DNA of 64,000 nt from an uncultured Nitrososphaerales archaeon (lineage in GTDB: Archaea; Thermoproteota; Nitrososphaeria; Nitrososphaerales; Nitrososphaeraceae), in the NCBI GenBank assembly GCA_963841565.1, contig CAWJCY010000012.1, positions 1 through 64,000 on the forward strand, in the 5' to 3' direction. The translations under genes and the position numbers were made by a program. Below the pieces are notes generated by a model that saw only the letters and a list, made by a program, of their open reading frames with translations, was not told the origin of the DNA and did no database searches. The first letter of the stretch is position 1. Every line of letters starts with the position of its first letter. This document shows, piece by piece, positions 1,855-17,361 of this stretch.

Positions 1855-2042
1855 AAATCTGTTCTGATATTACTTCATTTGAACGTATCTGGAGCTTGTC
1901 ATTTATAATTTATTTACGTATATAATTTATTTATGTAAGTCCGCCAGAGTGCTTATGAGCTATTCCTCTTAGCTTCGTATCCGCCTTGCGTGGGTAAGAT
2001 GAAAACATTCTTACAACATCAACCTTTTAAAATCTTTAAACG

Positions 2043-3143
2043 CTACTTTATTACGGATACAAGCCCATCAACGCCTGTAAGGGTGCCAGCTACGTAAACA
2101 GCCTTATTCGCTGGATTATATTCTAAGGCGAGAGGTAGACTATTAACATCTGTGGTAGAAGCCACCGTATTATTCTCACTGTCTAAAATGGATACAGAAT
2201 TGGATACAACATTACCTACGTACATGTCAGTATTAGATGGGTTGAATAGCAAAGCGACAGGCTCGGTACCAACTCCGACAGTTTCAAGTAACGTGCTATT
2301 AGAGCCATCAATTACAGATACAGTTCGTGAACCGCGATTGGCTACGTAGATATCATTGTTGGCAGGATTGAATTCTATGGTGGTAGGTTCATTTTCAACT
2401 TTAACATTATTTGCTACCACGTTACTCCTGGTATCGATAACGGAGACCGTTCCTGAATCTCTGTTGGCTACGTATAAAATGTTGTTTGAGGGGTTATATC
2501 CTAAGGATATAGGTGAGCCTTCCACTTCTATCTCTTTAATTACCGTATTATTATTGCCAACATCAATTACTGAGACGGTGTCTGAGCCTTCATTTGCTAC
2601 GTAGATATGGTTATTGGAGGGATTAAATTCCAAGTCTACAGGATCTATACCTGCTTCAATATCATTGGTAACCTCATTAACATTGCTGTCGATTACTGAA
2701 ATAGAGTTTGAAATCACATTAGCTACGTAAACATCGTTGTTGACTGGGTTGAAGAGCAGTTGTTCTGGGAAGCTGCCGACAGTAACATTCTTGATCACCG
2801 TATTGTTAGCAGTTTCTATCACAGACACTGTCCCCGAATCCCTATTGGTCACGTAGATATTGTTGTTGGATGGGTTGAAGACAAGTGCGTGCGGAGATGC
2901 GCCGACGGCAATATTTTTAATTACCGTATTGTTAGCAGTTTCTATCACAGACACTGTCCCCGAATCCCTATTGGTCACGTAGATATTGTTGTTGGATGGG
3001 TTGAAGACAAGTGCCTGCGGAAAACTACCCACCGGTATTACTGAGGTCACCGAATCTCCGAATATTTTGTTCACTCCAGGCGAGGATGATATGATCATTA
3101 GTACAATGAATAAGCATAAGCATACGAAGGGAAAAGATAGCAT
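2043..3143 (-). CDS. Secreted YVTN/YncE beta-propeller repeat protein
   Basis: Signal peptide plus ~8 repeats of VG..P..L.FNP.NN.IYV(T/A)N..S.TVSVI. Confidence 0.9.
   Translation of the reverse strand: MLSFPFVCLCLFIVLMIISSSPGVNKIFGDSVTSVIPVGSFPQALVFNPSNNNIYVTNRDSGTVSVIETANNTVIKNIAVGASPHALVFNPSNNNIYVTNRDSGTVSVIETANNTVIKNVTVGSFPEQLLFNPVNNDVYVANVISNSISVIDSNVNEVTNDIEAGIDPVDLEFNPSNNHIYVANEGSDTVSVIDVGNNNTVIKEIEVEGSPISLGYNPSNNILYVANRDSGTVSVIDTRSNVVANNVKVENEPTTIEFNPANNDIYVANRGSRTVSVIDGSNSTLLETVGVGTEPVALLFNPSNTDMYVGNVVSNSVSILDSENNTVASTTDVNSLPLALEYNPANKAVYVAGTLTGVDGLVSVIK
2797..3014. repeat. Intragenic tandem duplication, two identical 92-nt blocks, 126-nt period
   Basis: 2797-2888 is identical to 2923-3014; one 42-aa propeller blade. 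Confidence 0.9.
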
Positions 3144-4650
3144 ACTATACGTATCATGATTAATTGATTAGTATATAAAAACTTCTAGTAAGACATAAGT
3201 GCATAGTAAGAAAGGAACACAGAGCACACAAACTGCTGGCCTGTTTACACTGCTACTTCATAGTCATGGTTATTCTTGCATTAATCGGGCTGGGATGGAA
3301 AGCTTCACAGCCGGGGTAATAAGCGGGTTCGAAACTATTTTAGAAGTTGGCCAACCTATAGTGAGAATTTGACTCATGAGGCTCTAAATCGATATAATCA
3401 ATGCCGGAATTGAAGTGAGAGCCTAAAACTATCTAAAAAGTTGAATCCTTACAGATAACGAAAATAATAACAAGGAGTCAGGCCCCTGCTGCAAACAATG
3501 AAAGGATACCTATCTCTATGGCTAATGAACAAGCAAAATAGAGACTGTTATCCAACGGCTGTGTCTAAGTTCCTGAACCGTACTGCAGAATGGGTTAAGT
3601 GTTGTTTCGCGGTATCTCATAATTTAGACAAACGGGTCTAAAGGCATCAAGAAGATCATCATGCAATGTCTGCTATTTGTCCAGTTTCAAGTCGTCCAAT
3701 ACGACTGCAGTTCTAAGTGAAACTACAAGTCATTGCAGCTAAGGATGTATTTTGATTAACCTCTCGGACATCAACGTGTACGTCCACTGCACCATCTCTC
3801 TCTGTCTCTTTTGGAAGTTAACGGGGATTATCTGTCGACTACTATTTCTCAGGTCATTTCACACAATAGAGAAAAATAATTGACTAACCAAAAAGATGTT
3901 CAGACTGTGTTAAGGTAAGCTGCTTTTGATCTACCGTCTTCGAAAAACAGGGTGTATTTACTTAAGCCATATTTTACATAATTCTTAGGCTCAAATTATA
4001 GGGGGGGCCTGAGAAATATTTCTTACAAGACGCCTAGGTTTGTTTAATGGTATCTTACATCTTCAATCCTACTAATATTCTACACCTATAAGACTCTTTA
4101 ATTAAACCTTTATAGCTATATGCAAAGATTATTACACCTATAAAATAATTAGCAGATTCCACTGAAAAGGTCATAAGAGTTTTTGCACGCAAGGCCAGCA
4201 GTAAAAATGGAATAAAGAAACCAACTGGTTGATTGGGATGACTGTGGTGAGTTGGATGAATGCTCGGAATTAGCAAGTACAGGGGTGGATAGTGAAAGTC
4301 ATTTACACAGGTATTCCTAGATCTTGACACAATGATCGATTCCTGTTCTATTCAAGCTATTAGCAGTATGCACCGTGACCAATGCAGTAACCATTTTAGT
4401 TGCTCCCTTCAAGAACCTCCCAACAAAAATACAATAACCTTTTATTGATGTAGTACAGCATTCTGCCGATCCGACCAATTTTAAATTTTGTTTTCTTCTT
4501 GCATTCGATCAATATTCTGCTTTTAACTCGAAACTAGTTTTAGCAACTGTTCAGGCTAGGTCATAATTCTTCCATCGTGATAGTAACGGCCTAGTTAGTA
4601 ATCTATATCAAGTCTGAATCTTTGTTCCGCTATTGAAATTAAATAAATTG

Positions 4651-4670
4651 GAATCACGCATGCGTGATTC
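4651..4670. repeat. Perfect 20-bp palindrome
   Basis: GAATCACGCATGCGTGATTC equals its own reverse complement. Confidence 0.85.
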
Positions 4671-5090
4671 AAGAGTGTGAATGACGTGATGTTCCACATA
4701 ATGGAACTATTCAATATAATCTTTTACTACTTATCTAATGGTCAAGGCAATTAGTCTAAAATATAAAATGTGAAAAGGTATGTGTTATAAAAGATTTTAT
4801 TATACATGTAACTAGTCTATATTGTGGTCTTAAATAACCCAAACCAGGACATATCTAATCAGCTGGTTAGATGTGCAAGCATTGCCTTATGCTACTTTGA
4901 AAAGGCTACCGTCGACTTACTTCGCTATTTATCTCTTTTAACACTGCATCTCTATGTCTATCCTGATCTTCTGGCTCGTAAGGATCATGTGATTCAAACT
5001 TTTCGGATCTAGTCCAATTCAACCATGATATGTCATCTCATGCTTACATACAACATCTATTAAGTAGTGAGTCGCTCAAAATAAGTCATC

Positions 5091-5816
5091 ATGCAAAATG
5101 CTCCCGGAGTAATTTTCATCGTGAAAGAGATGGTAAAGCACCTTCTTAACTTGCTATTTGTCAATGCTCTATTCATATTCCTTGTACGCAAAGGAACAAA
5201 ATCAGGAGCAGAGTACAATATCAAGTTAATTGGACAGCCGACTAACTACTTTAAATTTAGCGCCGCCCTTATCGGCATATCGTTTGCGGTTATTGCAATT
5301 TTGATTGTAATTGTATTCGATCAAAACGTAATGATAGTAATTGCTGCTATTTTCATTTCTCTTGGGGCGGGGCGACAGATCTTTGCCTCGGCACTGGATG
5401 TCGTAACAACGAACCTGGACGCCTTCTTGTCATCTTGGGCATCAACTCTTCTATTGCTTGCAAGGACTAGGCTGATGGTGACGACGACAGATTGGCGTTC
5501 CATAGAAAGGCGAATCGAGCTGATACTCATGAGCAGGGGGCTTGAGTATAATTTGCCTGTTGAACTTGATGGGGTAAAACCAGAATCTCAGCAAATATTA
5601 TTAGAGTATTTGGATGAGCATAAATGGGAGTTAAAGTGTCAACAGGCTATTACAGATGATGATTCTAGCTGCCTTGCATTTGTCCAATACGCAACTAAAC
5701 AGATGAGAGAGAAGTTGCAGATATATGATAGACTGGAAGAACTACAGGAAAGAAGTGGAGGCGTTAACGCAGTAATCCTGATAGCATTGGGAACATTGAT
5801 TTGGTTAATTTCATAG
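5091..5816 (+). CDS. Hypothetical membrane protein, possibly frameshifted at the 3' end
   Basis: 241-aa ORF with several hydrophobic segments; a hydrophobic reading (VNFIVLALMAVLGLEISF) continues in another frame past the stop. Confidence 0.5.
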   Translation: MQNAPGVIFIVKEMVKHLLNLLFVNALFIFLVRKGTKSGAEYNIKLIGQPTNYFKFSAALIGISFAVIAILIVIVFDQNVMIVIAAIFISLGAGRQIFASALDVVTTNLDAFLSSWASTLLLLARTRLMVTTTDWRSIERRIELILMSRGLEYNLPVELDGVKPESQQILLEYLDEHKWELKCQQAITDDDSSCLAFVQYATKQMREKLQIYDRLEELQERSGGVNAVILIALGTLIWLIS

Positions 5817-6041
5817 TTTTGGCACTAATGGCAGTTTTAGGGTTGGAGATTTCATTTTTCTCAACTTCAAAGACTTTGGGTGCAATTATCTCACAGCTAC
5901 CGAAGGCCAAACAAAGAGAGGGCTCTACTATTATTTGAAAACGACTACTGATATCTTGTTGCAGCCGTCTTCCGAGACTTACTTTTTCATCCATTTCAAT
6001 AGTTTTTACCATATCTAACATATTGACCCAGTTCTAACAAG

Positions 6042-6308
6042 GTTGGTTTACTATCTAATATTGAGAGCGATTCATATTACATATACACCGAATATGTAGT
6101 TCGGTTTTTACTTATACTACTGTTATACTCTATGTGGCTATTTTTTACCTTCTAGTTCCTACAACTGTAGATGTAGCTTTATCGTCTTGCTTTTCTAATA
6201 TATACAAACATATAGTATGATCCTCTTGATCTCTTTTGCTTTTACTTTGAGAATATTTCTGTTGTAGTAAATTCTACAGACAAACGGGGCTAATTTTGAA
6301 TTTCATGC
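6042..6308. repeat. Dispersed repeat copy A
   Basis: 6081-6308 aligns with 7758-7958 (direct); 6042-6116 aligns with the reverse complement of 13727-13804; core hairpin ACCGAA-N-TTCGGT then a T-run. Confidence 0.9.
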
Positions 6309-6769
6309 AAATCCTCACTGTCAAAGTCAAACCAGAAGAGGTTTAACCAGATAACCGCCGTGATTGCAATAGCACTGGTCGTCTTGAGCGCTTCTGTGGT
6401 TATCAGTTGGGACAACCAATTACTGCCCAGAACCAGCTTGACAATATGACCGGTAATAAGACAGTTAATCAAACCGGAGGACTAAGAATGTCTATGTATT
6501 CCGATATCAGTCTGGTGCAGAAAATTACAAGAAATAACATGTCAATAACAAATAGTAACACAAGTTAGCCTCAGTTCAACTCTATAACAAATGATAAATG
6601 ATAAGGATGAAACCATGATGAACCATAGAGGTTATTGCTAGACCTTTAATGCCTACATATAGTAGAGAAATCTAGTTATCTTAACTTGGTAGCAAACAAG
6701 TAAACCAACTCGAAGTGAAGATAAACCATTCGATTATGTATTTCGACCGGCTACCACTACTAACTTATT

Positions 6770-7528
6770 CTAAAGGATAATTTGTTCAGCAGCAAATTTC
6801 CTAGGGTCTAGTAAATTAAATTCCTCTAAAAAGGCTTCAACTTCTTTTTCTGACTCCAAAAAGGCTTTAGCTTCACCTTTTCGCATCTTATCTAGTTTCC
6901 CGATCGCTTCTTTAAATTTCTCAATATCCATTACTAATCCATAGTAATCTCTTACTCTTTCCAGAGTTGTTTCATAATGTCTCTTGTCCCCGGACGCCGT
7001 AGCATCAGATATTATCATCACATCGTAACCTAAGTTAAATCCTTCCCTTAATGAAGTCTCTACACAAATAGAAGTATCAATTCCAGTAAATACCAAGAAA
7101 TTAATGCCCTGACTCTGAAGCATAATCCGGAAATCTGTATCTAGGAAAGCACCATCCCTTCGTTTTATAATTACAGGATCTTTCTCTTTAGGTTTTAGTT
7201 CATCGATTGTTACTCCATCCCAAGTACCTCTAATACATATGGGTACTTTCAATCTCTCCTGTCTTGATTTGGGTAAGATGTTATGGACGTTTGTAAGAAT
7301 ATCAATGCCACTATCCTCCTTTACTGCTTCGGTGTAAAAGACAGGAATACCCATACTCCTGCAGAATTCAATTAAATCCTTAAGCTTTGGAATAATCTCT
7401 CTATACAGAGAGGTGTTCATGCCAATTTTATCATATGAACCACCTTTACTAACAAAACCATTCTGCATATCTATAACTACCAATGCAGGTGCGAGTGTAC
7501 GTCCATTAGGCAAAATGACTTTAAACAA
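6770..7528 (-). CDS. Isochorismatase-family cysteine hydrolase (RutB-like)
   Basis: VIDMQNGF (Asp), IIKRR (Lys), GIDTSICVETS (Cys) catalytic triad. Confidence 0.88.
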   Translation of the reverse strand: MFKVILPNGRTLAPALVVIDMQNGFVSKGGSYDKIGMNTSLYREIIPKLKDLIEFCRSMGIPVFYTEAVKEDSGIDILTNVHNILPKSRQERLKVPICIRGTWDGVTIDELKPKEKDPVIIKRRDGAFLDTDFRIMLQSQGINFLVFTGIDTSICVETSLREGFNLGYDVMIISDATASGDKRHYETTLERVRDYYGLVMDIEKFKEAIGKLDKMRKGEAKAFLESEKEVEAFLEEFNLLDPRKFAAEQIIL

Positions 7529-7757
7529 TTTTTCATTCTTAATACTAATCCGCTTAAAGATAAACTTTTAATTACAGACATGCTGGGGTAAGCCTATACT
7601 TGTCCTTGTTCAGCATATGCATAGTGTACATTGAATATTCATACGTTGTCAGCACCATCTGTCTAGATTATAATAAAAGATAATGACTGGAAGTACATTG
7701 TAGGATGGAATGAGCTGGATTAGGAGGAATTCATACCGATGGTCGAAAATAAATAGT

Positions 7758-7958
7758 ATATACACCGAATATGTGTTCGGTTTTTACTTATACTATTTGT
7801 GTAGTTGTTTTCTGACTTCTGGTTCCTACCACGTCTTGCTTTTCTAATGTATACAAACATATAGCGTGATCCCATTGATCTCTTTTGCTTTTATTTTGAG
7901 AATATTTCTGTTGTAGTAAATTCTGCAAACAAACGGGGATGATTTTGAATCTCATGCA
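7758..7958. repeat. Dispersed repeat copy B, overlapping a 61-aa minus-strand ORF (7788-7973)
   Basis: Direct diverged copy of 6081-6308. Confidence 0.88.
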
Positions 7959-8317
7959 GCTCATCATACTCATTCAAGTATGCATTCTATAAGAAGTATA
8001 AATTAATTTCATTTCTATTTTTAAACTTCACAGACTAAAAGATTTCGTTACTTTTCAATTAAGATTCTCATTTACTATTCGACTTTATTTCCTAGCCTAA
8101 TTTGCCCTATTTTTTGACATAACAGTGAAGAGCTCTAATCTCAGATTGGGTACAATGGTTATTTGCCAGCCAACCTATCCTAGTCACTGGCTTTGGATGC
8201 CAGTACATATTCTTTGCACCTAGGAATAAGAGGAGCAGTCCTCCAGTCCTTCAGTTAGGAGTATATGTTTGTATATGTTTATTTTTCAATGAATATTTGT
8301 CGTTGTATATATGATTA

Positions 8318-8644
8318 TTATTGCATACATTGCAGAAGGTAATCATATTGTGATTCAATGTTCGATTTATCCTTAACTCTGTCCAATCGATTTTCTATCC
8401 TATTACTAATTGTAAAATGACTCGTAGATGGATCTTTAAAATAAGTGATAAATTCTTTATTCTCTTCCAGTAACCATTTTGTTGAACTTCTTGAACGAAA
8501 TGATTTGTTGTCATTTTCTTTGTATTTATCTTTAATTAAATATTTTATAATGTTTTGATACAATAAAGCATTGCGTGTATAACCACCATCGGATTTCAAG
8601 AAAACCGGCGGACTCCTTTTCAGATTCTTATACAGGCAGAACAC
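8318..8644 (-). pseudogene. Hypothetical protein fragment, divergent from the topoisomerase-like gene
   Basis: 108-aa charged ORF overlapping the 5' end of the next ORF; no firm motif. Confidence 0.35.
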
Positions 8645-11316
8645 CCAAGAACATCTCTTCTAATCCCGATCCAGAGTATAAGATTTACGAACACGAAGAT
8701 ACCCCACCGAGTAAAAATAACACCATCCAACTTGACGACTGGAATACACAAAAAAGTCTCGGTGGTATCCAATCACGCACAAATTCAACTGCTTTATACA
8801 CTGCCGAGAAGAGCAACATGGACTACTTTACCCTGCCAGGTGTTTGTAAACGCACAGGATGTAGTATAGTCGAATTAATTGTATGGGCTATAAGGCAACT
8901 AATCGATAATGGAGTTGATTTTGTCGAAAGTAATTATGATGAAAATTTACATTCAGATGACACCAGGATATACATCTCAACAAAATATGATCCTAATACA
9001 AATCAACTGATAATAAATGTAAGCAATCCAAACTTTGGAAAACATGAAGCAGGATTCACTGAAGAGAGGGTTAACGCCATATTCGAGGACTTGAATCAAT
9101 TTGTTTCCAGTAAACGGAATCTATTCAAGCTCACACGAGGTTATCAGGGTGATGCAATGCAAGAGGAATTAGGAATTCCAACCGCATTAGCTTCAAAATA
9201 CAGCAAAGGGAGAGAGTGGAATGAACCACTTACTATACGGAATGGGGCTGGACAAGAATTTGAAATCAGAATTATAATAGACAAGATATATGGACGCAAT
9301 TATTCGAAGATTAAAACTAATCAAACCAATAGAGCAGATAACTATACACAAGTAGAGATACGAGTACCATACAACAAAGACATAATCAATTTAGATGAAA
9401 TAAAAAAGGTTCTAATTGAATACGCATTACTCAACACACACATCAGTTTCAACCTCGATTTGGTAGATTCCATTAATACAGATAATCCTTTCGAATTCCA
9501 AGAACCATATCGAATAGACCTGCCAGCAACACAAAAGATGTTCATTAGCAATACAAGCTACAAAAAACTTACTCGCATATACCATTTTGACCTAGGGATA
9601 TTTGAGAATCTCCTTTATAGTATCGAAAACAAGGGTCTAAATATCTATGATGATATTCTTCAAGCTCACATCAAAGAAGGACATTGGCTAGTTAGAAGTA
9701 ATGATTTACTAGTTCCAGTCGGACAACTTCATAAATTACCAGAAAAAGAAAGTAAAGCGAAGATCCGTGATATTTTTCTTAGGTTACGCAGTGCCCGTCC
9801 GAACCAATCCATGGAATTAGGCCCGTCATTAGATGACATCAAAACAAAAAGAGATATGCTTCCATTCCATTTCAAAGAAAGATCTGAAGCACTAAAACTA
9901 AGAGTAGAACAACTTGGATATAATGTCGAGGATATAAAATATAAGATTGAGGTAGGCTACAGCTATAGTAATCCCTCCAATAAGTCAAATATTTCACAAA
10001 GTACAACAGATACTTGCGTTCCATATGTGGTTGAAGTTGCTATAATACATACCGAAGATTTAGAACATAAATTACTATACTGTGAAGGAATTAATGCTTC
10101 GCCAAATTATTATCACTCATTTACCTACAATGGTTACTATCATAACTATCTGACAAAGGGAGGTTCAGAAAAACGGGCATCTGAAGCTAAAGATTTATTA
10201 AGACAGTGTGGTTTTTCTAATGATTCAGACTGCAAACCAGAGAAAGAGAGAAGTATAGTTCTACTTAATCTATGGTCTCCAGTTATAGAGTACAAGGAAT
10301 ATGGTAAATCCTCCATCAACCTAGATCCGTTCGGATACACAGTCTATAACATGATGGGTCGAATGTGTTCTTCGACAAATAAGGTGCGTAATTCTAAAGG
10401 TGAAGTATTAGAGACAAAATCACTTCTAAAAGATTTTCTCACAGAAAGATACAAAACCGTTCTACTAAATCCGACTCTCAAAGAAACAGATCCTTGGAAG
10501 ACTAGCACAGTAGTTTATCGAAAACGTCCTGATTTAGAAAGAAGAGGACTTTATCCAACTAGGAAGTACCTACAGGGTTTAGTCAAGCCAATTTGTGACG
10601 AGATATCAGAAATGAAATTAATGATGAACAAAGACGGAAGCTACCATTTTGAATACACAGGTGTTATAGGGGTAAAGAGAGAGGCTCTTGGAATCTACGA
10701 AGCAACACGCGCTTACATATACTTTAGAGGTTTGACCCATCCAGTATCGCTCATAAGACTAGAAGAATTGAAGACATTGGCCGCTTTTATCGTGGTAATT
10801 GAAAAGGAGGGCGTAGTCGAGCTGCTCACGCATTGGGCAGATTTGTATGGTGTGGCATTATGTTACACCAAAGGATTTCTGACAGACAATGCAAAGGAAC
10901 TTAGTAGATTAGCTGACGAATCTGGTTGTAGAATTGTTATTCTTACTGATATGGATTTTGCCGGTCGTGCTATGGCTAATTTGGTTCCCAGTATTCCAAG
11001 AATTGGTATTACGCTTCAAACACTAAAACAATTAGGTCTTGAATTAAATCCTGATATTCTAGAAGAGCTACCTCAACCAAAGGTCAAAAATTCAAAGAAG
11101 TATAGGGTTCTTACTTATCTACACAATACACATGCTTCTACTGCTAAACTCATGTATGAACAGGGATCGATATGCAATGAAGACTGGAAAATTATGAGTG
11201 GTGGTAAATATGGCAAACGCATTGAAATAGACAATGTTCTTGCAGCTGCAGGAGCTGAGAAATTCTGGAAGGATTTCATTCTTGCGAGTTTTAGAGAATT
11301 GTTTGAAAAGTGGTAA
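8575..11316 (+). CDS. Single-chain type IIB topoisomerase-like protein (Topo VIB + VIA fusion, Topo VIII-like)
   Basis: GHKL motifs RQLIDNGVD and SSKR...TRGYQGDA; putative catalytic Tyr in STVVYRKRP; TOPRIM IEKEG, TKGF, TDMDFAG, RIEID; true start may lie downstream of 8575. Confidence 0.8.
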   Translation: MYNHHRISRKPADSFSDSYTGRTPKNISSNPDPEYKIYEHEDTPPSKNNTIQLDDWNTQKSLGGIQSRTNSTALYTAEKSNMDYFTLPGVCKRTGCSIVELIVWAIRQLIDNGVDFVESNYDENLHSDDTRIYISTKYDPNTNQLIINVSNPNFGKHEAGFTEERVNAIFEDLNQFVSSKRNLFKLTRGYQGDAMQEELGIPTALASKYSKGREWNEPLTIRNGAGQEFEIRIIIDKIYGRNYSKIKTNQTNRADNYTQVEIRVPYNKDIINLDEIKKVLIEYALLNTHISFNLDLVDSINTDNPFEFQEPYRIDLPATQKMFISNTSYKKLTRIYHFDLGIFENLLYSIENKGLNIYDDILQAHIKEGHWLVRSNDLLVPVGQLHKLPEKESKAKIRDIFLRLRSARPNQSMELGPSLDDIKTKRDMLPFHFKERSEALKLRVEQLGYNVEDIKYKIEVGYSYSNPSNKSNISQSTTDTCVPYVVEVAIIHTEDLEHKLLYCEGINASPNYYHSFTYNGYYHNYLTKGGSEKRASEAKDLLRQCGFSNDSDCKPEKERSIVLLNLWSPVIEYKEYGKSSINLDPFGYTVYNMMGRMCSSTNKVRNSKGEVLETKSLLKDFLTERYKTVLLNPTLKETDPWKTSTVVYRKRPDLERRGLYPTRKYLQGLVKPICDEISEMKLMMNKDGSYHFEYTGVIGVKREALGIYEATRAYIYFRGLTHPVSLIRLEELKTLAAFIVVIEKEGVVELLTHWADLYGVALCYTKGFLTDNAKELSRLADESGCRIVILTDMDFAGRAMANLVPSIPRIGITLQTLKQLGLELNPDILEELPQPKVKNSKKYRVLTYLHNTHASTAKLMYEQGSICNEDWKIMSGGKYGKRIEIDNVLAAAGAEKFWKDFILASFRELFEKW

Positions 11317-11545
11317 TATTGGCACTTTTCAGACAAACAAGTAGGGTGATTTACTGAGATTTGTCGAAGGACAGTTCAAAGTTTTACCCACGATCTTTAT
11401 CTGATGCGTTAGAGTAGCAGAAATACTAGTGTGTGTATACTAGTTGGCCTTCCTGTTCTTTCCCTACGGAATCTAACCTAGTTCTGAACTAATAAAATAC
11501 TATTCAAAATATTAACTGTTTTTCTAGTTAGTTAGACCTTATAGA

Positions 11546-11860
11546 TTACATTTTTGATAACAAGTCTGCTTTGAGTTTCTGGAATTCCTCGTCAGATAAT
11601 ATTCCTTTTTGGTGCAGATCAGCATATTTCTGCAACTTCTGAGTGACATCTTCCTGCTGTGATTGGGGTTGGGATTGAGGTTGTTGTTTTTGTTGCTGTA
11701 AGGCTTCTATTTGCTTTTGCTGTGCTTCTATCTGTTGTTGTGATGATTGTTGTTGAGCTTGTGCTGCCTGCGCCTGTTGTTGCTCCTGAGCACCAGCGCG
11801 ACTTCTGGCTACGTGTGCTCCTACAGCTGCTCCAGCCCATCTTCCTCTCATAACCTTCAA
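11546..11860 (-). CDS. Gln-rich SHOCT-domain protein
   Basis: C-terminal LQKYADLHQKGILSDEEFQKLKADLL. Confidence 0.8.
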   Translation of the reverse strand: MKVMRGRWAGAAVGAHVARSRAGAQEQQQAQAAQAQQQSSQQQIEAQQKQIEALQQQKQQPQSQPQSQQEDVTQKLQKYADLHQKGILSDEEFQKLKADLLSKM

Positions 11861-12036
11861 TAGAGTATATGTAGTTAATATACTTTCAAAAAGGAAATTT
11901 CAGTATTTTAGTTATGGTTTAACTCCTTGATACGCTGGTCTGATGGACTTAGTTCAAATGAGGACATTTTCTAAGGCCTCTTCCACTTGCCCCAGGCGAT
12001 ATTACTTAAAACAGAGTTCCATTTGTGGCCTGACTG

Positions 12037-12225
12037 TTATTTCTTGCCTTTAGCCTTATCACAATCATCTAGTTCGTCAAGTACCCTAGCCAGAATATCA
12101 TCAAGAGTCTCGCCCCCTTTGCCATGCGTAACCAGTCTTTGATGAGTTGTTTTTGAGATCTTGATGGTTGTGATGCTTTCCTTATCCTTGACCAACTCGG
12201 TATCGATGGTATACTTAAGACTCAT
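12037..12225 (-). CDS. Small ribbon-helix-helix (CopG/antitoxin-like) DNA-binding protein
   Basis: TTIKISKTTHQRL...GETLDDILARVLD; SD-like GAAGGAGG upstream. Confidence 0.65.
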   Translation of the reverse strand: MSLKYTIDTELVKDKESITTIKISKTTHQRLVTHGKGGETLDDILARVLDELDDCDKAKGKK

Positions 12226-12658
12226 TTGTATATCTTATGCCTCCTTCAGTCGTATTATAGACAACATTTCTTTGTTTTTTCATATACCAAAGATATCAAT
12301 GTGTTAGTTTCGTATACCCTAATATATCTGGTATGATGTATATCTGGTGGTATGAATCAAGAGTTAAAACAGATTCAACAAGAGAACAAGACACTGGATA
12401 AAGCACGTATTATCGTACTACTAACATTTGATTAGAATATTTGATGAGCGTTACTAGTTAGCATATATCATTTTTTCACGAATGATGCCGCTTGTGATAA
12501 TAGTGTATTCGGAACTGCAGAAAGTCATTATAGATTACATTTCCTATTCATAAAACAGTTTCTAGATAGCAAATCCTATCTATAAATAAATGAACGCTAA
12601 GGTACGTAAGAATACGCATGGTCGTTAGCTTTTAAGGATATCTCTACAGGCATTAGGC

Positions 12659-12811
12659 ATGAGAGCCAGGGCAGCCTCTTTAAATGACGTCGGTGATAAC
12701 GCTTCGACTAATTGGGAGTACCCCTTCGCTACTGGAGACGTGCACGTGGCGCTAGCAATTTACTCGAGGGACGATCAAAGCCTGGAAGCAGTTTTGGAGC
12801 ATTCACGCTAG
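12659..12811 (+). pseudogene. Dyp-type peroxidase fragment (not in ORF track)
   Basis: Hand translation MRARAASLNDVGDNASTNWEYPFATGDVHVALAIYSRDDQSLEAVLEHSR resembles the GMAARA..LGD.G..P..W....DVH segment of Dyp peroxidases. Confidence 0.55.
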
Positions 12812-12990
12812 CTTGGAGTATGCCTGACAGATTCGACAACGGTTTATAGCATGATTGTTAAATTGGTGGTGCGTTAGCATTCCTTCATCTATCGTTGCTT
12901 CGCCATGTCGACGATGTTAATAATAAAACCAGTTTATCCTGTCTAACAGTATAAAACAAGCTTAAATACTCCATATTCCATCTAAAGATT

Positions 12991-13230
12991 ATGTCTGATG
13001 CTGTAGTAAATTGGGAATCCATAGTACATAAGAACGTTAGGTCGAAGGATGGAGAAGGCGCAGGGAACGTGGACGCTATTTTTGGAGATACAATAATCAT
13101 TACGTCACAAGGTGATCGTGCAGAATATAAACTACCAAAATCCCAGGTAGAGGGGTACAATGGGGCAGAAGTTTCGTTAAAAGTTACTTTAGATGAATTG
13201 GAGAAGTATAGAACTACCTCCCCTGAATAG
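12991..13230 (+). CDS. Small PRC-barrel-like protein
   Basis: VHKNVRSKDG..AGNVDAI...EYKLPKSQVEGYNG.EV.L. Confidence 0.6.
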   Translation: MSDAVVNWESIVHKNVRSKDGEGAGNVDAIFGDTIIITSQGDRAEYKLPKSQVEGYNGAEVSLKVTLDELEKYRTTSPE

Positions 13231-13630
13231 GACCGCAATTTTTGACTGAATCGGTCCTCAGATTATAAGTCAGATAATTACTTCTTTTAGCAAATAAAAG
13301 TACATCTCCTGTCCACTGTTTTCTAATTTCGCCCTCCTTGACATAAGTCTTGACAAGAATATACTTCCCTAACTTGTTAGTTACGTTATTTAGTAATCGG
13401 GCAATCCCGGCATCATCATCGGATGACGATACAATAGGTCAAACTATCGAGAAGGATGTGAGGTGGGGATGATCCAAGGGAGAGAGGATCATGGCGATGA
13501 TAAGGAACATGATGATAGTCGTCCTCCTGAAAAAGGTGAAATCCTATCATTGAAATAGGATACAATAATTTAACTTAATTTCACTCTAGGCTCCGCAGTT
13601 GTTGCACTTCACTCCTAGAAGGAGATCATT

Positions 13631-13735
13631 ATGAATAAAGTCGGAACTAGAGACATCCCGCCGCTGAACTGGGACGTGCTCGTAACGCCCGGCATACCTA
13701 TTGCCATGAACGACCTACACAGATATTATAAGTAA
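13631..13735 (+). pseudogene. N-terminal remnant of a probable MBL-fold hydrolase, cut at repeat copy C
   Basis: AGGAG SD then MNKVGTRDIPPLNWDVLVTPGIPIAMNDL; the reading runs straight into the repeat. Confidence 0.4.
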
Positions 13736-13804
13736 AAACCGAACTACATATTCAGTGTATATGTGATATGAATCAACACTCTCAGAATTAGATAGTAAAC
13801 CAAC
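13727..13804. repeat. Dispersed repeat copy C, inverted relative to A and B
   Basis: Reverse complement matches 6042-6116 with a few substitutions and one small indel. Confidence 0.9.
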
Positions 13805-13945
13805 TCTAAATTCTACCACAGAAATGGATGCATAATTTGTAAGCTTAGCTAGTTGTCGAGTTAACAGCACCAATCATGCTCCTGCAAAGCTCTATATATC
13901 ATCATCATAAAAGTCGATAGTATATCCGACACAGCTAGGATAATA

Positions 13946-14482
13946 TTGTATATTATAATTATCGTCATTGTAATTATTACCAGAATCAAATGGACTAAAC
14001 ACGGAAGAAAGGTGACGAAGCGAATAATTGTGGCTGACTCTATTTTCTTCTCTGCGTTAGCTTCTATTTTTATTTTTGATTCATTTTATAATATTGGCGT
14101 TCAAATTTTATATCTTATTCCTTATTTAATTCTGTTCTTAGCCTTCGAACATATTTCTTATATGCATTCAAATCGGCTAATATCGTTCTGGAAGGATTCG
14201 AAGTCTGGTTCTATTTACGTCAAGGGGGGAACACACATCCATTATGCATACATTATAGGAACAGCATCACGTCTTATAGTATCAGTTTTATTTATTGGCG
14301 GTTTGTTTGCACGTAGTCGAGAAGGAATAATACATGTTGATAATTCTGCAGCAGTACTTGCAACCATGGTGTTTGATTTCTTATTAATGATTTGTTTCGG
14401 CTTGTTAATAGGAATAAATAGAAGGGTACTTATTAGATACAATTTGATTAAAGAAGGAAAAGAAAAGATCTCGGAAGGGTAG
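13946..14482 (+). CDS. Hypothetical membrane protein (DUF1453/CcdC-like)
   Basis: About 5 hydrophobic helices; FWKD..GSIYVKGG. Confidence 0.55.
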   Translation: MYIIIIVIVIITRIKWTKHGRKVTKRIIVADSIFFSALASIFIFDSFYNIGVQILYLIPYLILFLAFEHISYMHSNRLISFWKDSKSGSIYVKGGTHIHYAYIIGTASRLIVSVLFIGGLFARSREGIIHVDNSAAVLATMVFDFLLMICFGLLIGINRRVLIRYNLIKEGKEKISEG

Positions 14483-14550
14483 ATATACGGTTTCTCTTGT
14501 TTTAATCCTAATACTGTACTCCTACATCGATAAATTTCGCTAACCATTCG

Positions 14551-14676
14551 TTCTCGAGTTGGTTGACTCCCAAGCCATTTCTAAGTCAGCCTGCTGCCTT
14601 AGTTAGCTGAGCTGAAACACTAGCAAACAAAACTTGGGCCTCTATGAGCCCTAGCGGCAAGGCTTGGATGCGAGAA
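14551..14676 (+). ncRNA. Candidate structured RNA
   Basis: Nested stems TTCTCG/CGAGAA and CCAAGCC/GGCTTGG enclosing three hairpins; folded by eye only. Confidence 0.3.
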
Positions 14677-14951
14677 TATAGAGTTCCCAGGTCATCATGA
14701 TCTATCATTCTGGATGCCAAAAGAATTCGCTAACACCATTCAGAAGACGTTAGAACGGTATGGATACAGTCAAGAATGACTATAAAAATTATGCCATTGC
14801 ACCAAGACTAAATAACCAGCTGATCTTTTGTCTGAAGCCTTAACTACCCGGATTCGTAAGATAGCGTGAATAGTTTAGATAACACTTAGACTTGCATTGC
14901 GAGAACCTACGATGTCGTATGACTGTACTATCCTGCTACAAAAAATAAACG

Positions 14952-15212
14952 CTATTCTAGTTCCGCTTTGATACGCTTTACTAACGAATCTACAGTAATA
15001 GGTTTCTTTATGAAGCAACCTATACTCTTCAGTGGATGCACTTCTCTTTTGGCATCTATATTAACTTCTCCAGAAGTCATAAAGCACACTTTGACATTGA
15101 GGTCCTGTTGTAATAATTTTTCACATAATTCAAAGCCATTCATTAAGGGCATGTTTATATCAATAAGTAACAAATCATAAAAGCTGGGTTTGAAATCTGA
15201 TAATGCGAGCAA
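14952..15212 (-). pseudogene. Response-regulator receiver domain, 5'-truncated
   Basis: YDLLLIDINMPLMNGFEL...FMTS...FIKKP; lacks the N-terminal acidic pocket strand. Confidence 0.75.
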
Positions 15213-15491
15213 GGCTGAATTAAATTCGTGAAAAGACTGAACTAAGCAATAAGGCTAGAACCTATCAAGATTTCTGTGACCGAAACTTGAAATTAAAAAA
15301 GAGAGAAGATGATTTTCAATTGTCTATCAACAAATTGGAAGCCAAAGAGGCAGAATTAAATAATTCATCATCTCAGACATTATACGTACCCTACTGCAAG
15401 AATTAGAAGTAGAATTAACTGGGGGAGAAATGTGTGTAGGAGAAGGCTAAAATCATACCTTACGTTACTAGTTCAAGGATTTCCACCTCAC

Positions 15492-15728
15492 GAATTCTAG
15501 GGACAAAGGCTAACACAGATTCAAAACTCAGGGACCTGTGTATAGCGCCCAGCCAGCCAGCCAGGGGACACTTTTGAATTGTGTGTATGCATTTACATAT
15601 GAATGAAATGAATTCTAGGGACAAAGGCTAACACAGATTCAAAACTCAAGGACCTGTGTATAGCGCCCAGCCAGCCAGCCAGGGGACACTTTTGAATTGT
15701 GTGTATGCATTTACATATGAATGAAATG
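15492..15728. repeat. Tandem duplication, 2 x 118 bp with one mismatch
   Basis: GAATTCTAGGGACAAAGG... starts at 15492 and again at 15610. Confidence 0.95.
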
Positions 15729-16040
15729 TACTACTGCATAATATTTCCTAGCCTTTCTCTAGGAATATATAATCCAACAAAAAGTGGGAATAAATTAGTA
15801 ATCAGTTCCATAACAGATAGTAATGTGGTCTACAAAGATTAATCTGGAGTGACGGTCCAACAATAATGGAATAGAGGTGTGTGTGGGAGTTCTCCTCACT
15901 GTGCGTCTGCTATCTATAACACATTTTTAATTACTTAGTTCACTTCTTCTTTGCTGGCTTTGCATTATTCTGCATGCACATTTATGCGTCATTGTTGTTA
16001 TCTTTGCCACTGCCTAATAATAGGCGGCTACAATATTTAA

Positions 16041-16199
16041 CTAAGTTTTATTGCCATGCCGTTCGAGTTCGTGTCTAACACTGTGTTCTATACAATATTT
16101 TCTGCCGCAATAAATACACTCTTCTGTAGCCGGAGAATCGCAGTCGAGCCAACTACATTTCTTCTTTGAGTTATCATTATTGGTGTCGTTATCCTTCAA
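16041..16199 (-). CDS. 52-aa Zn-finger microprotein (not in ORF track)
   Basis: TTG start; MKDNDTNNDNSKKKCSWLDCDSPATEECIYCGRKYCIEHSVRHELERHGNKT; C-x4-C-x7-C-x2-C-x4-C-x2-H-x3-H. Confidence 0.7.
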   Translation of the reverse strand: MKDNDTNNDNSKKKCSWLDCDSPATEECIYCGRKYCIEHSVRHELERHGNKT

Positions 16200-16565
16200 T
16201 GTTCTTATCTCTTCCTGATGTTATATTGTGTACGAGTTCTTATAAATACGGCATATACAATTATATAAAAAAACTAAGGTTAATTCGACTTATTTCTCAT
16301 AAGATAAGTACGGCTAATTGGTAATTTTAAAGTCGCTGACCCGACAAATAAGCCGTCTTGCTCTTAAATTCTTCTAGTAATATCCAGGTATTCGTCAGCA
16401 TTAGCCAGTTCTTCATCATCTCGTGACTTATCTCATGGAGTGATATGTGTTACCATAATAATAATAATCAATGATTTCAGCATATCTGAAGAATGAGTTG
16501 GCGTTAAAGAATCCTCAAGTCAAACACAAAAAGATTGATATTGCGATTCTTGATTCATACATAGA

Positions 16566-16703
16566 ATGGCAAAATGTACAAAATGTGGAGCAGATATTAA
16601 ATCTGGCGGCTATGATACAGAAGAATTAAAGCTTCCCAATGCTACCTGCTATTTAGTTTCTTGTAAGCAATGTAAGACTGTGCTTGGAATAGTTCAAGAG
16701 TAG
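16566..16703 (+). CDS. 45-aa zinc-ribbon microprotein (not in ORF track)
   Basis: MAKCTKCGADIKSGGYDTEELKLPNATCYLVSCKQCKTVLGIVQE; two CxxC knuckles. Confidence 0.7.
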   Translation: MAKCTKCGADIKSGGYDTEELKLPNATCYLVSCKQCKTVLGIVQE

Positions 16704-16836
16704 CCAAATTTACTACTCCCGTTAATATCATCAGAGATGAAGTAGAACCAAAGGCAGCGTATGCTCAATGATTCGATTAATATAGAAATTATGGTTATGC
16801 ACGGATTAACCTAAATATTTCAAACAAAAAGTAAGA

Positions 16837-17361
16837 TCAACGAGAGATCTGCTTCTTGGCCATGGCTTGAGATCTAATTGATGCCAGGGATTGATCAATT
16901 TGATATACCGCCAGTTTCTCTCTTCCAAATATCTCAAATTTTTGAAGAATTGATCGAAATAGGATCTCTTCCTCTACTTGTTCGCTTACAAACCATTGTA
17001 GGAATAAGTATGTTGCACGGTCTTTTTCTTTTTCAGCAATCTCTACTAAATCGTTGATGAGGTTAGTAACAGTCTGTTCACTCTTTAGAGCGGCTTGAAA
17101 AGTAGATTCTAGTGAATCGAATTTACCTTGAGGTTTTTCTATTGCTGGAATTATAGCTTCAGCCTCAGCATTATTAAGATAATGAACGAATTTTAACATG
17201 TGTGTATTTTCCTCAACTGCTTGTTCGAAAAAGAAAGCTGCACTTCCATCGTATCCAGTTCTTTCACACCATGATCCCATCGCAACATATGCATTGATAG
17301 CAGATGCTTCATAGGCAATTTGATCATTAATCGCTTTTTCCATTTGTGATGAAATTCTCAT
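16837..17361 (-). CDS. ftnA: Non-heme ferritin
   Basis: INDQIAYE, EQAVEENTH, EQTVT, FLQWFVSEQVEEE ferroxidase residues. Confidence 0.92.
   Translation of the reverse strand: MRISSQMEKAINDQIAYEASAINAYVAMGSWCERTGYDGSAAFFFEQAVEENTHMLKFVHYLNNAEAEAIIPAIEKPQGKFDSLESTFQAALKSEQTVTNLINDLVEIAEKEKDRATYLFLQWFVSEQVEEEILFRSILQKFEIFGREKLAVYQIDQSLASIRSQAMAKKQISR

Follow-up and report, generated by a model that had tools for sequence, protein, structure and literature searches.

The window, a stretch of 64,000 nucleotides from an uncultured Nitrososphaerales archaeon (contig CAWJCY010000012.1), encodes a single-chain protein with the domain order GHKL, H2TH-like region, transducer, 5Y-CAP without its N-terminal part, and Toprim, which is homologous from end to end to an accepted topoisomerase VIII (Topo VIII). 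The protein is part of a large, hitherto undescribed Topo VIII-like group in soil ammonia-oxidising archaea, whose ATP module, judged by its motifs, is remodelled and not decayed. We consider it probable that it belongs to a Topo VIII-like clade (found in Nitrososphaerales in the named records, with B and A halves fused, and usually element-borne) and that it acts by the DNA-gate mechanism proposed below.

The gene is a single open frame on the plus strand (8575..11316; 913 amino acids and a stop codon, with a GTG start in the ORF listing and its translation). The whole ORF was assigned as a Topo VIII-like fused type IIB topoisomerase homologue by its homologues and by hhalign. The true start of the ORF is uncertain, because residues 1–68 (8575..8778) are predicted to be disordered (pLDDT <50) and the first in-frame ATG corresponds to residue 82; in the alignment, conservation of residues 1–68 is restricted to near relatives. 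The AlphaFold2 model of the whole 913-amino-acid protein has a mean pLDDT of 88.1, and the model of the C-terminal 314 residues (600–913) one of 94.7. The GHKL domain with its Bergerat fold covers residues 80–329 (8812..9561, approximate boundaries; all features given here lie on the plus strand) and was assigned by the profile alignment to Top6B, Foldseek, and the motif census. It is followed by an H2TH-like region (approximately residues 330–415, 9562..9819), which is spanned by the continuous Top6B profile alignment and is helical in the AlphaFold2 model, and by the transducer domain (about 416–632, 9820..10470), recognised from the model and from a profile match to the Top6B stretch that we take to bear the switch lysine, here K578 (10306–10308). 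In the model, the long transducer helix 606–631 runs directly into the A half. The latter comprises a 5Y-CAP (winged-helix) domain without the N-terminal part of Top6A (about 633–735, 10471..10779; VIA-align and hhalign) and the Toprim domain (736–913, 10780..11313), for which the Pfam Toprim and DUF2399 matches were below threshold and the assignment was made by the census and by Foldseek and VIA-align to Top6A, MksG, and Spo11.

An earlier note, made from the sequence alone, had read the ORF as a single-chain Top6B–Top6A fusion of the Topo VIII type, and this reading was borne out by profile comparison, Foldseek, VIA-align, and hhalign. The family profile (alignment A2) matched Top6B of S. 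shibatae with an E-value of 2.4e-25 over chain residues 34–467, and the full model retrieved Top6B chains in Foldseek at 9.9e-20 to 5e-14. With the C-terminal model, Foldseek found Top6A (1d3y_B) at 5.6e-8, and the highest VIA-align scores were those of Top6A chains (Z 16.6 for 2zbk_A, 16.5 for 1d3y_B, and 14.5 for 2q2e_A), while generic Toprim proteins reached Z 9.5 at most. Model residues 5–311 were placed on chain residues 71–386 of 2zbk_A, i.e., the alignment to Top6A begins only at about chain residue 70. The plasmid 5 protein of Halalkalicoccus jeotgali, which is named as a Topo VIII in PMC7671362, was aligned by hhalign with a probability of 100 and an E-value of 9.5e-42 over 681 columns (query 7–745, template 6–775). 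In this alignment, Y648 falls on the second tyrosine of the R-x-x-Y-Y motif, and R651 and P652 on its +3 arginine and +4 proline. Three other identities were rejected. Topo VI has separate A and B subunits instead of a fused chain, and the genome's own Top6A gave only a marginal likeness to the profile (hhalign probability 3.9, E 0.011); beyond the window, the contig also carries a gene for a canonical Top6A (PF04406, 49.7 bits). Mini-A was rejected on account of the B half, which is present, and of the box RIEIDNV, which stands in place of xWELDAL. For the Wadjet proteins JetD/MksG, the DUF2399 match (16.4 bits) stayed below the cut-off of 23.4, PADLOC gave no match, and SMC-like neighbours were absent. 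Family matches covering the A half only (about 350–460 amino acids) exist, and split B/A gene pairs were also seen.

The candidate catalytic tyrosine and the Toprim acids, which the earlier note had picked out, are present in the ORF (STVVYRKRP, residues 644–652; IEKEG, 742–746; DMD, 792–794) and invariant across the family. The tyrosine (Y648, 10516–10518) is found in 204/204 rows, the arginine at +3 (R651) in 179/204, and the proline at +4 (P652) in 128/204; arginine and proline at these positions are described as a Topo VIII-specific signature (PMC7671362). The Toprim glutamate (E743, 10801–10803) is kept in all 195 rows, the first aspartate (D792, 10948–10950) in all 187, the second (D794, 10954–10956) in 184 of 186, and the glycine (G797) in 185 of 186. 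The T2BI-like box at R882–V888 (RIEIDNV, 11218–11238) follows the pattern of the published RVELNAM with conservative changes, but is not that string; its arginine is present in 165/178 and its glutamate in 176/178 rows. The cleavage core, which had been called intact, is so with regard to the tyrosine and the Toprim E/DxDxxG residues, but not with regard to the residues in front of the tyrosine. Topo VI, Mini-A, and most Topo VIII have a conserved arginine at −4 (PMC7671362), whereas the window protein has S644 at this position and V647 at −1, hence neither a basic residue at −4 nor an aromatic residue or methionine at −1. Across the family, position −4 is serine in 156/203 rows and arginine in 7/203, and position −1 is occupied by V, F, W, and Y in 69, 56, 51, and 21 of 204 rows, respectively. 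Given the serine at −4 and the valine at −1, the cleavage chemistry may differ.

The window copy ends early. A 93%-identical relative (P0002, 1026 amino acids) matched the window in tblastn only over its residues 6–858 (window 8749–11307); full-length relatives cease to resemble the ORF at 11307/11308, after which it closes with K-W-stop (break point, 11307..11316). Absent from the window ORF is the C-terminal tail of the family (about 100–170 amino acids), which nearly all full-length relatives carry in the alignment, and a near-identical tail was not found elsewhere in the assembly. The family tail was not aligned with that of H. jeotgali Topo VIII by hhalign. Three metagenomes hold close relatives, whose contigs depart from the window sequence at 11308 and continue into the tail, and the window's own junction at 11308 is absent among the metagenome matches listed; therefore, a mis-join in the assembly at this position may be the source of the missing tail. 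No integrase or replication gene was found within the 26 kb examined around the window copy, on its contig the closest integrase-like match lies approximately 100 kb away, and its flanks are mosaic in structure, with repeated modules as well as inverted repeats. Neither the missing tail nor the location outside a recognisable element had been part of the earlier note. The copy may be an orphan, tail-less and without element genes around it, that is either retained or heading to decay, and it may be non-functional.

It appears rather unlikely that this copy is a decaying, 3′-truncated relic of a lost element without present function. The missing tail, the lack of element genes nearby, and the mosaic flanks would fit a relic, as would the many family copies elsewhere that are fragmentary, split, or interrupted by internal stops in the genome survey. 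However, the frame is open over 913 codons with every catalytic residue in place, and the break leaves the complete Toprim domain and the last helix in a confidently folded model. In addition, synonymous changes are more frequent per site than non-synonymous ones in the clade, as distinct from the window copy alone: the 26 differences to metagenome relatives among those listed comprise 13 synonymous (581 sites) and 13 non-synonymous ones (2158 sites), a ratio of approximately 0.27. RNA was represented solely by two short contigs of a 95–97% relative from a single soil metatranscriptome, which may stem from carried-over DNA.

The departures of the ATP site from the GHKL consensus were located by the Top6B profile alignment, in which RQLIDN (residues 107–112) coincides with the N-box and N-P-N-F-G with D-N-G-I-G of the G1 box. 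In the N-box (R107–N112), Q108 (8896–8898) replaces the glutamate and N112 (8908–8910) is retained, hence there is no canonical ExxxN. The G1 box, contained in NVSNPNFG (148–155), has N151 (9025–9027) for the aspartate and N153 (9031–9033) for the first glycine, followed by G155 (9037–9039), and is not DxGxG. Both changes had been recognised before, and the census confirmed them. The N-box position is E in 119, Q in 19, and D in 3 of 141 family rows, a count that includes the window sequence twice. The G1 aspartate position is asparagine in at least 122/139 rows, and canonical D, G, G were found in 5/139. The loss of DxGxG is therefore real, but nearly family-wide and shared by the Glu-bearing members, so that only Glu→Gln marks the window's clade. 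All 10 other clade members that cover the N-box (65–93% identical) have the glutamine and an NPNFG-type or similar non-DxGxG G1 box, which shows that the changes are not strain-specific decay. Judged from the alignment and from a tree of 82 near-full-length rows, on which glutamine requires three changes, Glu→Gln is clade-specific, fixed down to 65% identity, and has arisen at least three times.

The remaining nucleotide-site residues are kept: the Mg-binding asparagine in 139/140 rows, the two glycines of the G2 box in 143/144 and 145/145, the switch lysine in 186/186, and the SSKR lid (residues 178–181 of the GHKL domain), which is near-invariant in alignment A1. The G2 box of the window protein (R188–A194, 9136–9156) is of the GxxGxA type (G189-Y-Q-G192-D-A194), like that of 129/145 rows; the last residue is alanine in these and glycine in 11. 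Within the Gln clade, conservation is equal in the GHKL and Toprim domains (72% identity in both between the window protein, P0001, and a relative, P0006). The term degenerate, which the earlier note had applied to the ATPase, thus describes the lost glutamate and the lost aspartate and first glycine of G1, but not the Mg-binding asparagine, the lid, the G2 box, the switch lysine, or the domain as a whole. Because the phosphate-contacting residues are under selection, we regard the B half as a working clamp. A few distant members retain DNGxG, which indicates a canonical ancestor.

From these motifs, we infer a loss of hydrolysis or of ATP binding. Among GHKL ATPases, glutamine in place of the general-base glutamate is the classical substitution that abolishes hydrolysis, and the exchange of aspartate for asparagine at G1 abolishes ATP binding in Hsp90 and GyrB. 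Together with the replaced first glycine of G1, this makes it unlikely, more so than for the relic, that the protein is a competent nucleotide-driven topoisomerase with a non-canonical pocket, which would use an NTP, perhaps with another base preference (asparagine for aspartate), and whose Gln clade would be slow or use another general base. The near-complete conservation of the switch lysine, the Mg-binding asparagine, the G2 glycines, and the lid, the equal conservation of the GHKL and Toprim domains, and the canonical ancestry argue for such an enzyme. Given that the switch lysine, the G2 box, and the SSK lid do not vary, most members, namely those with the glutamate, could be conventional enzymes driven by NTP in spite of their unusual G1 box, in which case "ATP-uncoupled" would be the wrong term for the family.

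One search yielded 69 homologues at E ≤1e-3, and a profile search at E ≤1e-30 returned 437 cluster representatives, a number that includes fragments; chance would not produce matches of this order. The named records of the family are from Nitrososphaerales only. Within the taxonomic family, homologues are present in 42 of 151 genomes (one of them, G035, unpublished) with a patchy, multi-copy distribution. A viral contig collection gave no match, and Nitrososphaera has no occurrence in the text of the Topo VIII papers PMC4117785 and PMC7671362. In the tree, the window's Gln clade consists of seven rows (support 100), and its sister is a Glu clade of 25 rows that includes a paralogue from a different contig of this genome. 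This paralogue is of the Glu type, 57% identical, intact, and provided with the tail. Its presence and the sister relationship of the two clades would suit a hydrolysis-dead window protein that pairs with the paralogue in a heterodimer, i.e., an asymmetric clamp with one active site. Such a pairing is improbable, however, since the two genes are unlinked and are seen together in this genome only; the loci from the 151 species genomes that were searched yielded no other member of the Gln clade.

The homologues are associated with mobile elements. Integrase-like families F1 or F2 were found in 16 of 20 homologue loci, with PHROG integrase matches of 6.6e-8 and 3.4e-10 for the representatives of F1/F2; as a rough control from one genome, about 10 such integrase-like places occur in its 2.05 Mb. 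Homologues sit on integrase-bearing islands and are adjoined by genes for PolB, MCM, and D5-like primase–helicases, and the elements that carry the family are normally integrated plasmid- or virus-like ones. The window copy itself has no element genes nearby. Of the two roles suggested in the earlier note, element mobility or defence, the second was not sustained. A defence nuclease, that is, a Toprim/winged-helix DNA cutter of the MksG/JetD kind directed against invading DNA and regulated by the GHKL clamp, is very unlikely: although the A half resembles MksG (VIA-align Z 13.1; Foldseek 8.3e-5) and JetD (Foldseek 1.1e-2) and has the sub-threshold DUF2399 match, Top6A outscores MksG in VIA-align, PADLOC had no match for the window protein, its conserved neighbours, the paralogue, or a distantly related member, and the homologues are accompanied by integrases and replication genes instead of SMC-like partners, which are also absent at the window locus.

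The preferred reading, a Topo VIII-like DNA gate, can be outlined as follows. The A halves of two chains would form a dimer of the Top6A/Spo11 type, which would cut both DNA strands via Y648 with Mg2+ bound to E743, D792, and D794. The B half would still work as a nucleotide- or phosphate-sensing clamp, with a base recognition unlike that of canonical GHKL enzymes; in the Gln clade, it would not hydrolyse the nucleotide because of the glutamine in place of the general base. The enzyme would then be a nucleotide-latched or nucleotide-independent DNA gate that carries out cleavage or ATP-independent relaxation, two activities for which some bacterial Topo VIII offer examples. Its role would be the replication or resolution of the carrier element and not the control of cellular supercoiling, since the latter is covered by the genome's own Topo VI. 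A more far-reaching version, which we put forward only tentatively and consider unlikely in its full extent, is a rewired GHKL clamp that either has a different nucleotide specificity or senses triphosphates irrespective of the base, because the adenine-reading aspartate is replaced by asparagine nearly throughout and the phosphate-contacting residues are invariant. Against this background, the hydrolysis-blocking Glu→Gln change would have become fixed at least three times independently. The Gln types would be nucleotide-latched gates, which could act as single-turnover double-strand cutters or as the dead partner of the Glu-type paralogue and would serve mobile elements of thaumarchaea in their replication, resolution, or integration.

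Among known systems, H. jeotgali Topo VIII (Gadelle et al. 2014, PMC4117785; Takahashi et al. 2020, PMC7671362) is similar in having both halves in one chain that aligns end to end, a 5Y-CAP domain without the N-terminal part, the tyrosine followed by Arg +3 and Pro +4, a GxxGxA-type G2 box, the switch lysine, the Toprim E/DxDxxG residues, and, where Toprim ends, an R-[VI]-E-[LI]-[ND] box. Homologues of the window protein lie in integrated elements beside replication genes, and the H. jeotgali gene likewise adjoins a P4-family primase. In contrast to Topo VIII, the archaeal family described here has N-x-N-x-G nearly throughout instead of DxGxG, glutamine in the N-box in the window's clade, serine instead of Arg/His at −4 and valine at −1 of the tyrosine, RIEIDNV instead of RVELNAM, and Nitrososphaerales as hosts, and the window copy lacks the C-terminal extension. 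Precedents are provided by the Topo VIII of Microscilla marina and Ammonifex degensii, two type IIB fusions for which plasmid linearisation or DNA relaxation in the absence of ATP has been reported (PMC4117785). The A. degensii enzyme shares the GxxGxA G2 box (PMC7671362); both enzymes are, however, reported with conserved N and G1 boxes. Topo VI (Top6A2–Top6B2) has the same five domains and catalytic residues and provides the best solved-structure matches for both halves, but it consists of two separate subunits with a full 5Y-CAP domain and canonical ExxxN and DxGxG motifs. Spo11–TOPOVIBL likewise couples a Top6A-type cutter (VIA-align Z 11.8 for Spo11) to a B-type module with degenerate ATP-binding motifs. 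In TOPOVIBL, a single glycine remains in the G2 box (PMC7671362), whereas the B module of the window protein is fused to the cutter and keeps the lid, G2, the Mg-binding asparagine, and the switch lysine; a meiotic or recombination context does not apply to the archaeal protein. MksG/JetD of Wadjet-type plasmid defence share the Toprim and winged-helix parts and differ in lacking a GHKL/transducer half and in having SMC-like partners.

Of the type II topoisomerases, Topo VIII is the one that is least well understood. A survey from 2020 counted 82 members (PMC7671362), and according to a 2021 review none of the archaeal ones had been characterised (PMC8185306). The 437 cluster representatives (E ≤1e-30, with fragments counted) point to a much larger archaeal Topo VIII-like branch in soil ammonia oxidisers, in which the ATP site has undergone systematic remodelling, with the residues for cutting and for phosphate sensing remaining fixed. 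The Gln and G1-less variants, their Glu-bearing sisters, and the few canonical relatives form a natural variant series, with which the role of a B-type clamp could be probed once ATP is no longer burned, the same question that is posed by Spo11/TOPOVIBL. If the rewired-clamp reading is true, the family would be a natural experiment in the GHKL clamp of type II topoisomerases. In Nitrososphaerales, where the search for replication modules and genetic tools is continuing (PMC6563490), the family is also a marker of integrated elements.

The open reading frame at 8575..11316 of the window (+ strand) is a single open frame of 913 codons with a GTG start. All sequence strings quoted in the earlier note are present in its product: RQLIDN at residues 107-112, NVSNPNFG at 148-155, STVVYRKRP at 644-652, IEKEG at 742-746, and DMD at 792-794. 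With the protein itself as query, Pfam returned sub-threshold matches to DUF2399 (16.4 bits against a cut-off of 23.4) and to Toprim (13 bits), both within residues 738-804, and there was no match in NCBIfam, in PHROGs, or among the PDB sequences searched with phmmer. The small family profile A1 matched Top6B in the stretch carrying the switch lysine alone (E 0.0056). The wider profile A2, built from 86 members, matched Top6B of S. shibatae with an E-value of 2.4e-25 over chain residues 34-467, Top6B of M. mazei with 4.8e-16, and MutL with 1.9e-7. By these sequence matches to Top6B and MutL, the N-terminal half is identified as a genuine GHKL-transducer module with a probable H2TH region in between.

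No family profile reached Top6A by sequence, and the identity of the A half therefore rests on fold comparison and on the hhalign comparison with Topo VIII. The full-length AlphaFold2 model (mean pLDDT 88.1, pTM 0.67; disorder at residues 1-68) had Top6B chains as its best Foldseek matches among solved structures (9.9e-20 to 5e-14). Residues 600-913 modeled alone (pLDDT 94.7, pTM 0.87) matched the Top6A chains 1d3y_B (5.6e-8) and 9o8p_A (2.9e-6). In the VIA-align comparison of this segment with the Top6A chain 2zbk_A, 255 residues were aligned (Z 16.6, rmsd 4.3), with model residues 5-311 placed on chain residues 71-386, so that the alignment begins near Top6A residue 70. Other Top6A structures scored similarly (1d3y_B, Z 16.5; 2q2e_A, Z 14.5), followed by the MksG nuclease (Z 13.1), Spo11 (Z 11.8), and generic Toprim proteins (9.5 or less). 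The Toprim domain, including its last helix, is complete in the model. A complex prediction with two copies of residues 600-913 (score 0.01, mark 0.42) spoke neither for nor against pairing.

A tblastn search of plasmids with a distant family member as query matched plasmid 5 of Halalkalicoccus jeotgali, whose protein is referred to in the introduction of PMC7671362 as the first archaeal Topo VIII. In hhalign, the family profile aligned to this 906-aa protein across 681 columns, starting at the N-box and running to where the Toprim domain ends (probability 100, E 9.5e-42), whereas the same profile hardly aligned to the Top6A of the window's own genome (probability 3.9, E 0.011). A canonical Top6A (PF04406, 49.7 bits) is encoded elsewhere on the window's contig. 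On the strength of the hhalign contrast, the protein is very probably a Topo VIII-like enzyme and not a cellular Topo VI. The residues around the catalytic tyrosine fit the published Topo VIII signature in part. [quoted passage not shown] However, position -4 is mostly serine (156 of 203 rows; arginine in just 7), and position -1 also differs from published Topo VIII, being V in 69, F in 56, W in 51, and Y in 21 of 204 rows (valine in the window protein).

For a census of the active-site motifs, residues were tallied at the key positions of an alignment of 256 sequences to the family model; row totals vary by position. The cleavage center is practically invariant, with the catalytic tyrosine in 204/204 rows and, in the Toprim domain, the glutamate in 195/195, the two aspartates of DxD in 187/187 and 184/186, and the glycine in 185/186. 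The ATP site presents a mixed picture. The Mg-binding asparagine is kept in 139 of 140 rows, as are the G2 glycines (143/144 and 145/145); since the last G2 residue is mostly alanine (129/145; glycine in 11/145), the box is of the GxxGxA type. The switch lysine, which aligns with the Top6B stretch bearing that residue, occurs in 186/186 rows, and the SSKR lid motif is near-invariant in the A1 alignment. In contrast, just 5 of 139 rows have a canonical (D,G,G) G1 box, asparagine occupies the aspartate position in at least 122 of the 139, and the general-base position holds glutamate in 119, glutamine in 19, and aspartate in 3 of 141 rows (the window protein being entered twice). The ATPase had earlier been called degenerate. 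This stands for the replaced general base and the lost DxGxG, but not for the Mg-binding asparagine, G2 box, lid, and switch lysine, which are retained; the site is better described as remodeled.

The exchange of the general-base glutamate for glutamine is not peculiar to the window copy, as the earlier note had left to be checked: it is conserved in all 10 other members of its clade that cover the N-box, from 93% down to 65% identity. On a FastTree phylogeny of 82 near-full-length rows (69 with E, 11 with Q, 2 with D), glutamine requires three changes, one in a lone row, one in a clade of 3 rows (support 100), and one in the window's own clade of 7 rows (support 100). Its sister group, a 25-row glutamate clade, includes a second copy from the same genome, located on another contig, which is 57% identical to the window protein, intact, and equipped with the C-terminal tail discussed below. 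Within the glutamine clade, the GHKL domain is as well conserved as the Toprim domain (72% vs 72% identity between the window protein and its relative P0006, 83% vs 67% between the window protein and P0004). When the window ORF was compared with close relatives in three soil or plant metagenomes, 13 of the 26 differences listed were synonymous and 13 were not, which corresponds to a substitution ratio of about 0.27 (581 synonymous and 2158 non-synonymous sites), a rough value because 330 more differences exist besides the 26 listed. The conservation of the GHKL domain together with this ratio indicates, at the sequence level, that the B half is under selection and has been remodeled rather than lost.

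The window copy itself is a tail-less orphan of this glutamine-bearing clade. Its relative P0002 (93% identical, 1026 aa) matches the window only as far as 11307, and nothing in the window corresponds to the ~170 residues that follow in P0002. Most full-length relatives have a tail of this kind; the sole match to that of P0002 in the whole assembly is the tail of the paralogue (42% identical). Metagenome contigs of close relatives (three in run X1, one each in X3 and X4) diverge from the window exactly at 11308, and their in-frame continuation starts like the P0002 tail. None of the metagenome matches listed bridges the window's own junction, but 184 more exist besides these, so this is not evidence of its absence. 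The junction may accordingly be either a genuine rearrangement or a mis-join of the assembly. In one soil metatranscriptome, 10893-11290 is covered by two short contigs of 215 and 155 nt with 95-97% identity, weak evidence that a close relative of the ORF is transcribed.

Within the 26 kb examined around the window copy, no integrase, transposase, or replication gene was found; the neighboring genes code for an isochorismatase-family protein, a SHOCT-domain protein, DUF7557, DUF2171, and ferritin. The flanks are composed of modules that recur elsewhere in the genus, together with inverted repeats (6069-6119 with 13724-13774; 7775-7804 with 13715-13744). A repeat of ~80-280 nt is found in direct orientation at 6042-6317 and 7758-7966, around the isochorismatase-family gene, and inverted at 13715-13804. 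The inverted-repeat arms flank the segment with the topoisomerase-like gene, and pieces related to the repeat are also present in further genomes of this genus. Among the 13 other genomes of the genus, no clean empty insertion site was found, only scattered matches to repeated flank modules. A copy 97% identical to the SHOCT-domain gene (11546-11911), which lies shortly downstream of the break, is located on another contig of the genome (C7:994-1359), and a second genome of the genus has copies at 96% identity; these copies are consistent with a mobile or recombining cassette that abuts the truncated gene. Further downstream, a short dispersed repeat of ~50 nt (12448-12500) has numerous 86-92% matches spread over several genomes of the genus, and metagenome contigs also break off around 12421-12501. 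A tandem duplication of two 118-nt copies, exact in length and 99% identical, is located at 15492-15727. The aquaporin gene (MIP, PF00230; 20293-21259, +) is divided into two overlapping ORFs (N-terminal 20293-20907, C-terminal 20807-21259), which suggests a frameshift or a sequencing error.

The surroundings of the paralogue (contig C1:5287-8136, - strand; locus L044), a 949-aa ORF with the glutamate-type N-box KENIDN, look like a decayed integrated element. An integrase-like gene in four ORF pieces lies beside it (L044 11661-13019). The same locus (1-18000) also contains HTH genes, as well as a small ORF that carries a DPPY motif, has no Pfam match and for which the motif alone would allow no more than a guess at a methyltransferase.

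An association with integrated elements is also seen across the family. When neighboring ORFs from up to 20 kb around 20 homologues were clustered, two integrase-like families were represented at 16 of these 20 loci. Family representatives matched PHROG integrases (6.6e-8 and 3.4e-10) and, weakly, Pfam integrase families. As a rough control, the same queries matched about 10 places in one genome of 2.05 Mb, so that about 1 in 10 random 20-kb stretches would be expected to contain an integrase. Genes for a family B DNA polymerase (2e-38), an MCM helicase (7.7e-30), a D5_N/DUF5906 primase-helicase (5.2e-20), and DDE transposases also occur beside homologues; likewise, the Topo VIII gene of H. 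jeotgali adjoins a P4-family primase. The defense role that had been considered found no support, as PADLOC recognized neither the window protein nor the conserved neighbors. Genes of two further families are located immediately upstream of family members and oriented like them, F3 (~275-360 aa, e.g., L061:2201-3280) in 5 and F4 (~340-440 aa, e.g., L052:8081-9409) in 4 of 21 loci; in L061, F3 and the start of the topoisomerase-like gene share 4 nt. Neither matched Pfam, PHROG, or PADLOC, and an atlas look-up for F3 led to a Nitrososphaerota cluster without a name (0.90) and to weak leads for DUF7845 (0.81). Both are absent from the window and are possible partners of the topoisomerase-like protein.

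A word-indexed search yielded 69 homologues at E <= 1e-3, nearly all unnamed, the named ones from Nitrososphaeraceae MAGs. A profile of 21 homologues found 1974 matches at E <= 1e-3 among 1.84 billion cluster representatives (1139 at 1e-10, 437 at 1e-30); many of the best 150, which were listed, are fragments or one half only. Within the taxonomic family, 42 of 151 species genomes (one of them, G035, unpublished) matched at E <= 1e-10, including 27 of 103 high-quality genomes and covering 10 of 18 genera. Several matches per genome are common; many are in pieces or contain internal stops, and some consist of adjacent B-like and A-like genes. Some of these forms are split after the transducer (B-like ~610-655 aa, then A-like ~340-375 aa), among them a pair adjoining PolB (L053, G074:C279) and one near a 1441-aa MCM-domain protein (L058, G040:C26), and others after the GHKL domain (~270-340 aa, then ~560-660 aa). 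Split forms recur in L053, L058, L049, L050, L054, and L046 and are candidate two-gene enzymes or broken genes. Class-wide, 6 of 301 genomes matched. Apart from the window's own genome, these were 3 among the 39 of its family and 2 among the 10 of one further family; the largest other family (180 genomes) and the remaining twelve (71 genomes) gave none. An A1 pattern scan of species genomes confirmed 22 loci, titled Nitrososphaerales, Nitrososphaeraceae, Nitrosopolaris, or Nitrososphaera in 16 cases, Thermoproteota only in 5, and Nitrosopumilales in 1; in a viral contig collection, none of 39 pattern matches was confirmed. The tblastn search with the distant member also matched an unannotated stretch of a Synechococcus plasmid.

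In the mechanism we propose, two chains would pair via their A halves, like Top6A and Spo11, and both DNA strands would be cut through Y648 with Mg2+ held by E743, D792, and D794, while the B halves would form a clamp gating the cleavage. The clamp probably still senses a triphosphate, because there is no variation in the residues contacting the phosphates, Mg2+, and the gamma-phosphate. With asparagine in place of the adenine-reading aspartate, the family probably differs in base recognition, and hydrolysis is probably lost in the glutamine clade, in which the general base is glutamine. In other enzymes of the GHKL type, such substitutions of the general base and the G1 box prevent hydrolysis or binding. 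The interpretation of an ATP-uncoupled enzyme serving element mobility is supported in part, and the observation behind it is confirmed. Plasmid linearization and ATP-independent relaxation are on record for bacterial Topo VIII (PMC4117785). With this precedent, a nucleotide-latched or nucleotide-independent gate for the replication or resolution of integrated elements is the best-supported reading, and we hold it, as a whole, to be moderately likely.

In the Topo VIII papers PMC7671362 and PMC4117785, Nitrososphaera does not occur and Thaumarchaeota occurs once each, in the reference list only. A full-text search for "Topo VIII" with "Thaumarchaeota" returned only PMC7671362 and a 2021 review in which the terms are unrelated and in whose table N. 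viennensis is given a single type IIB enzyme. Among the matches listed for Topo VIII literature from 2021 onward, no title or abstract concerned this group, and a 2024 review contains neither Nitrososphaer nor Thaumarch. Type IA topoisomerases are the sole ones mentioned in a survey of thaumarchaeal integrated elements. The supplementary sequence lists of these papers could include members of the family. Topo VIII itself is known; what is new is a Nitrososphaerales branch of enzymes, very probably Topo VIII-like, with a remodeled ATP site.
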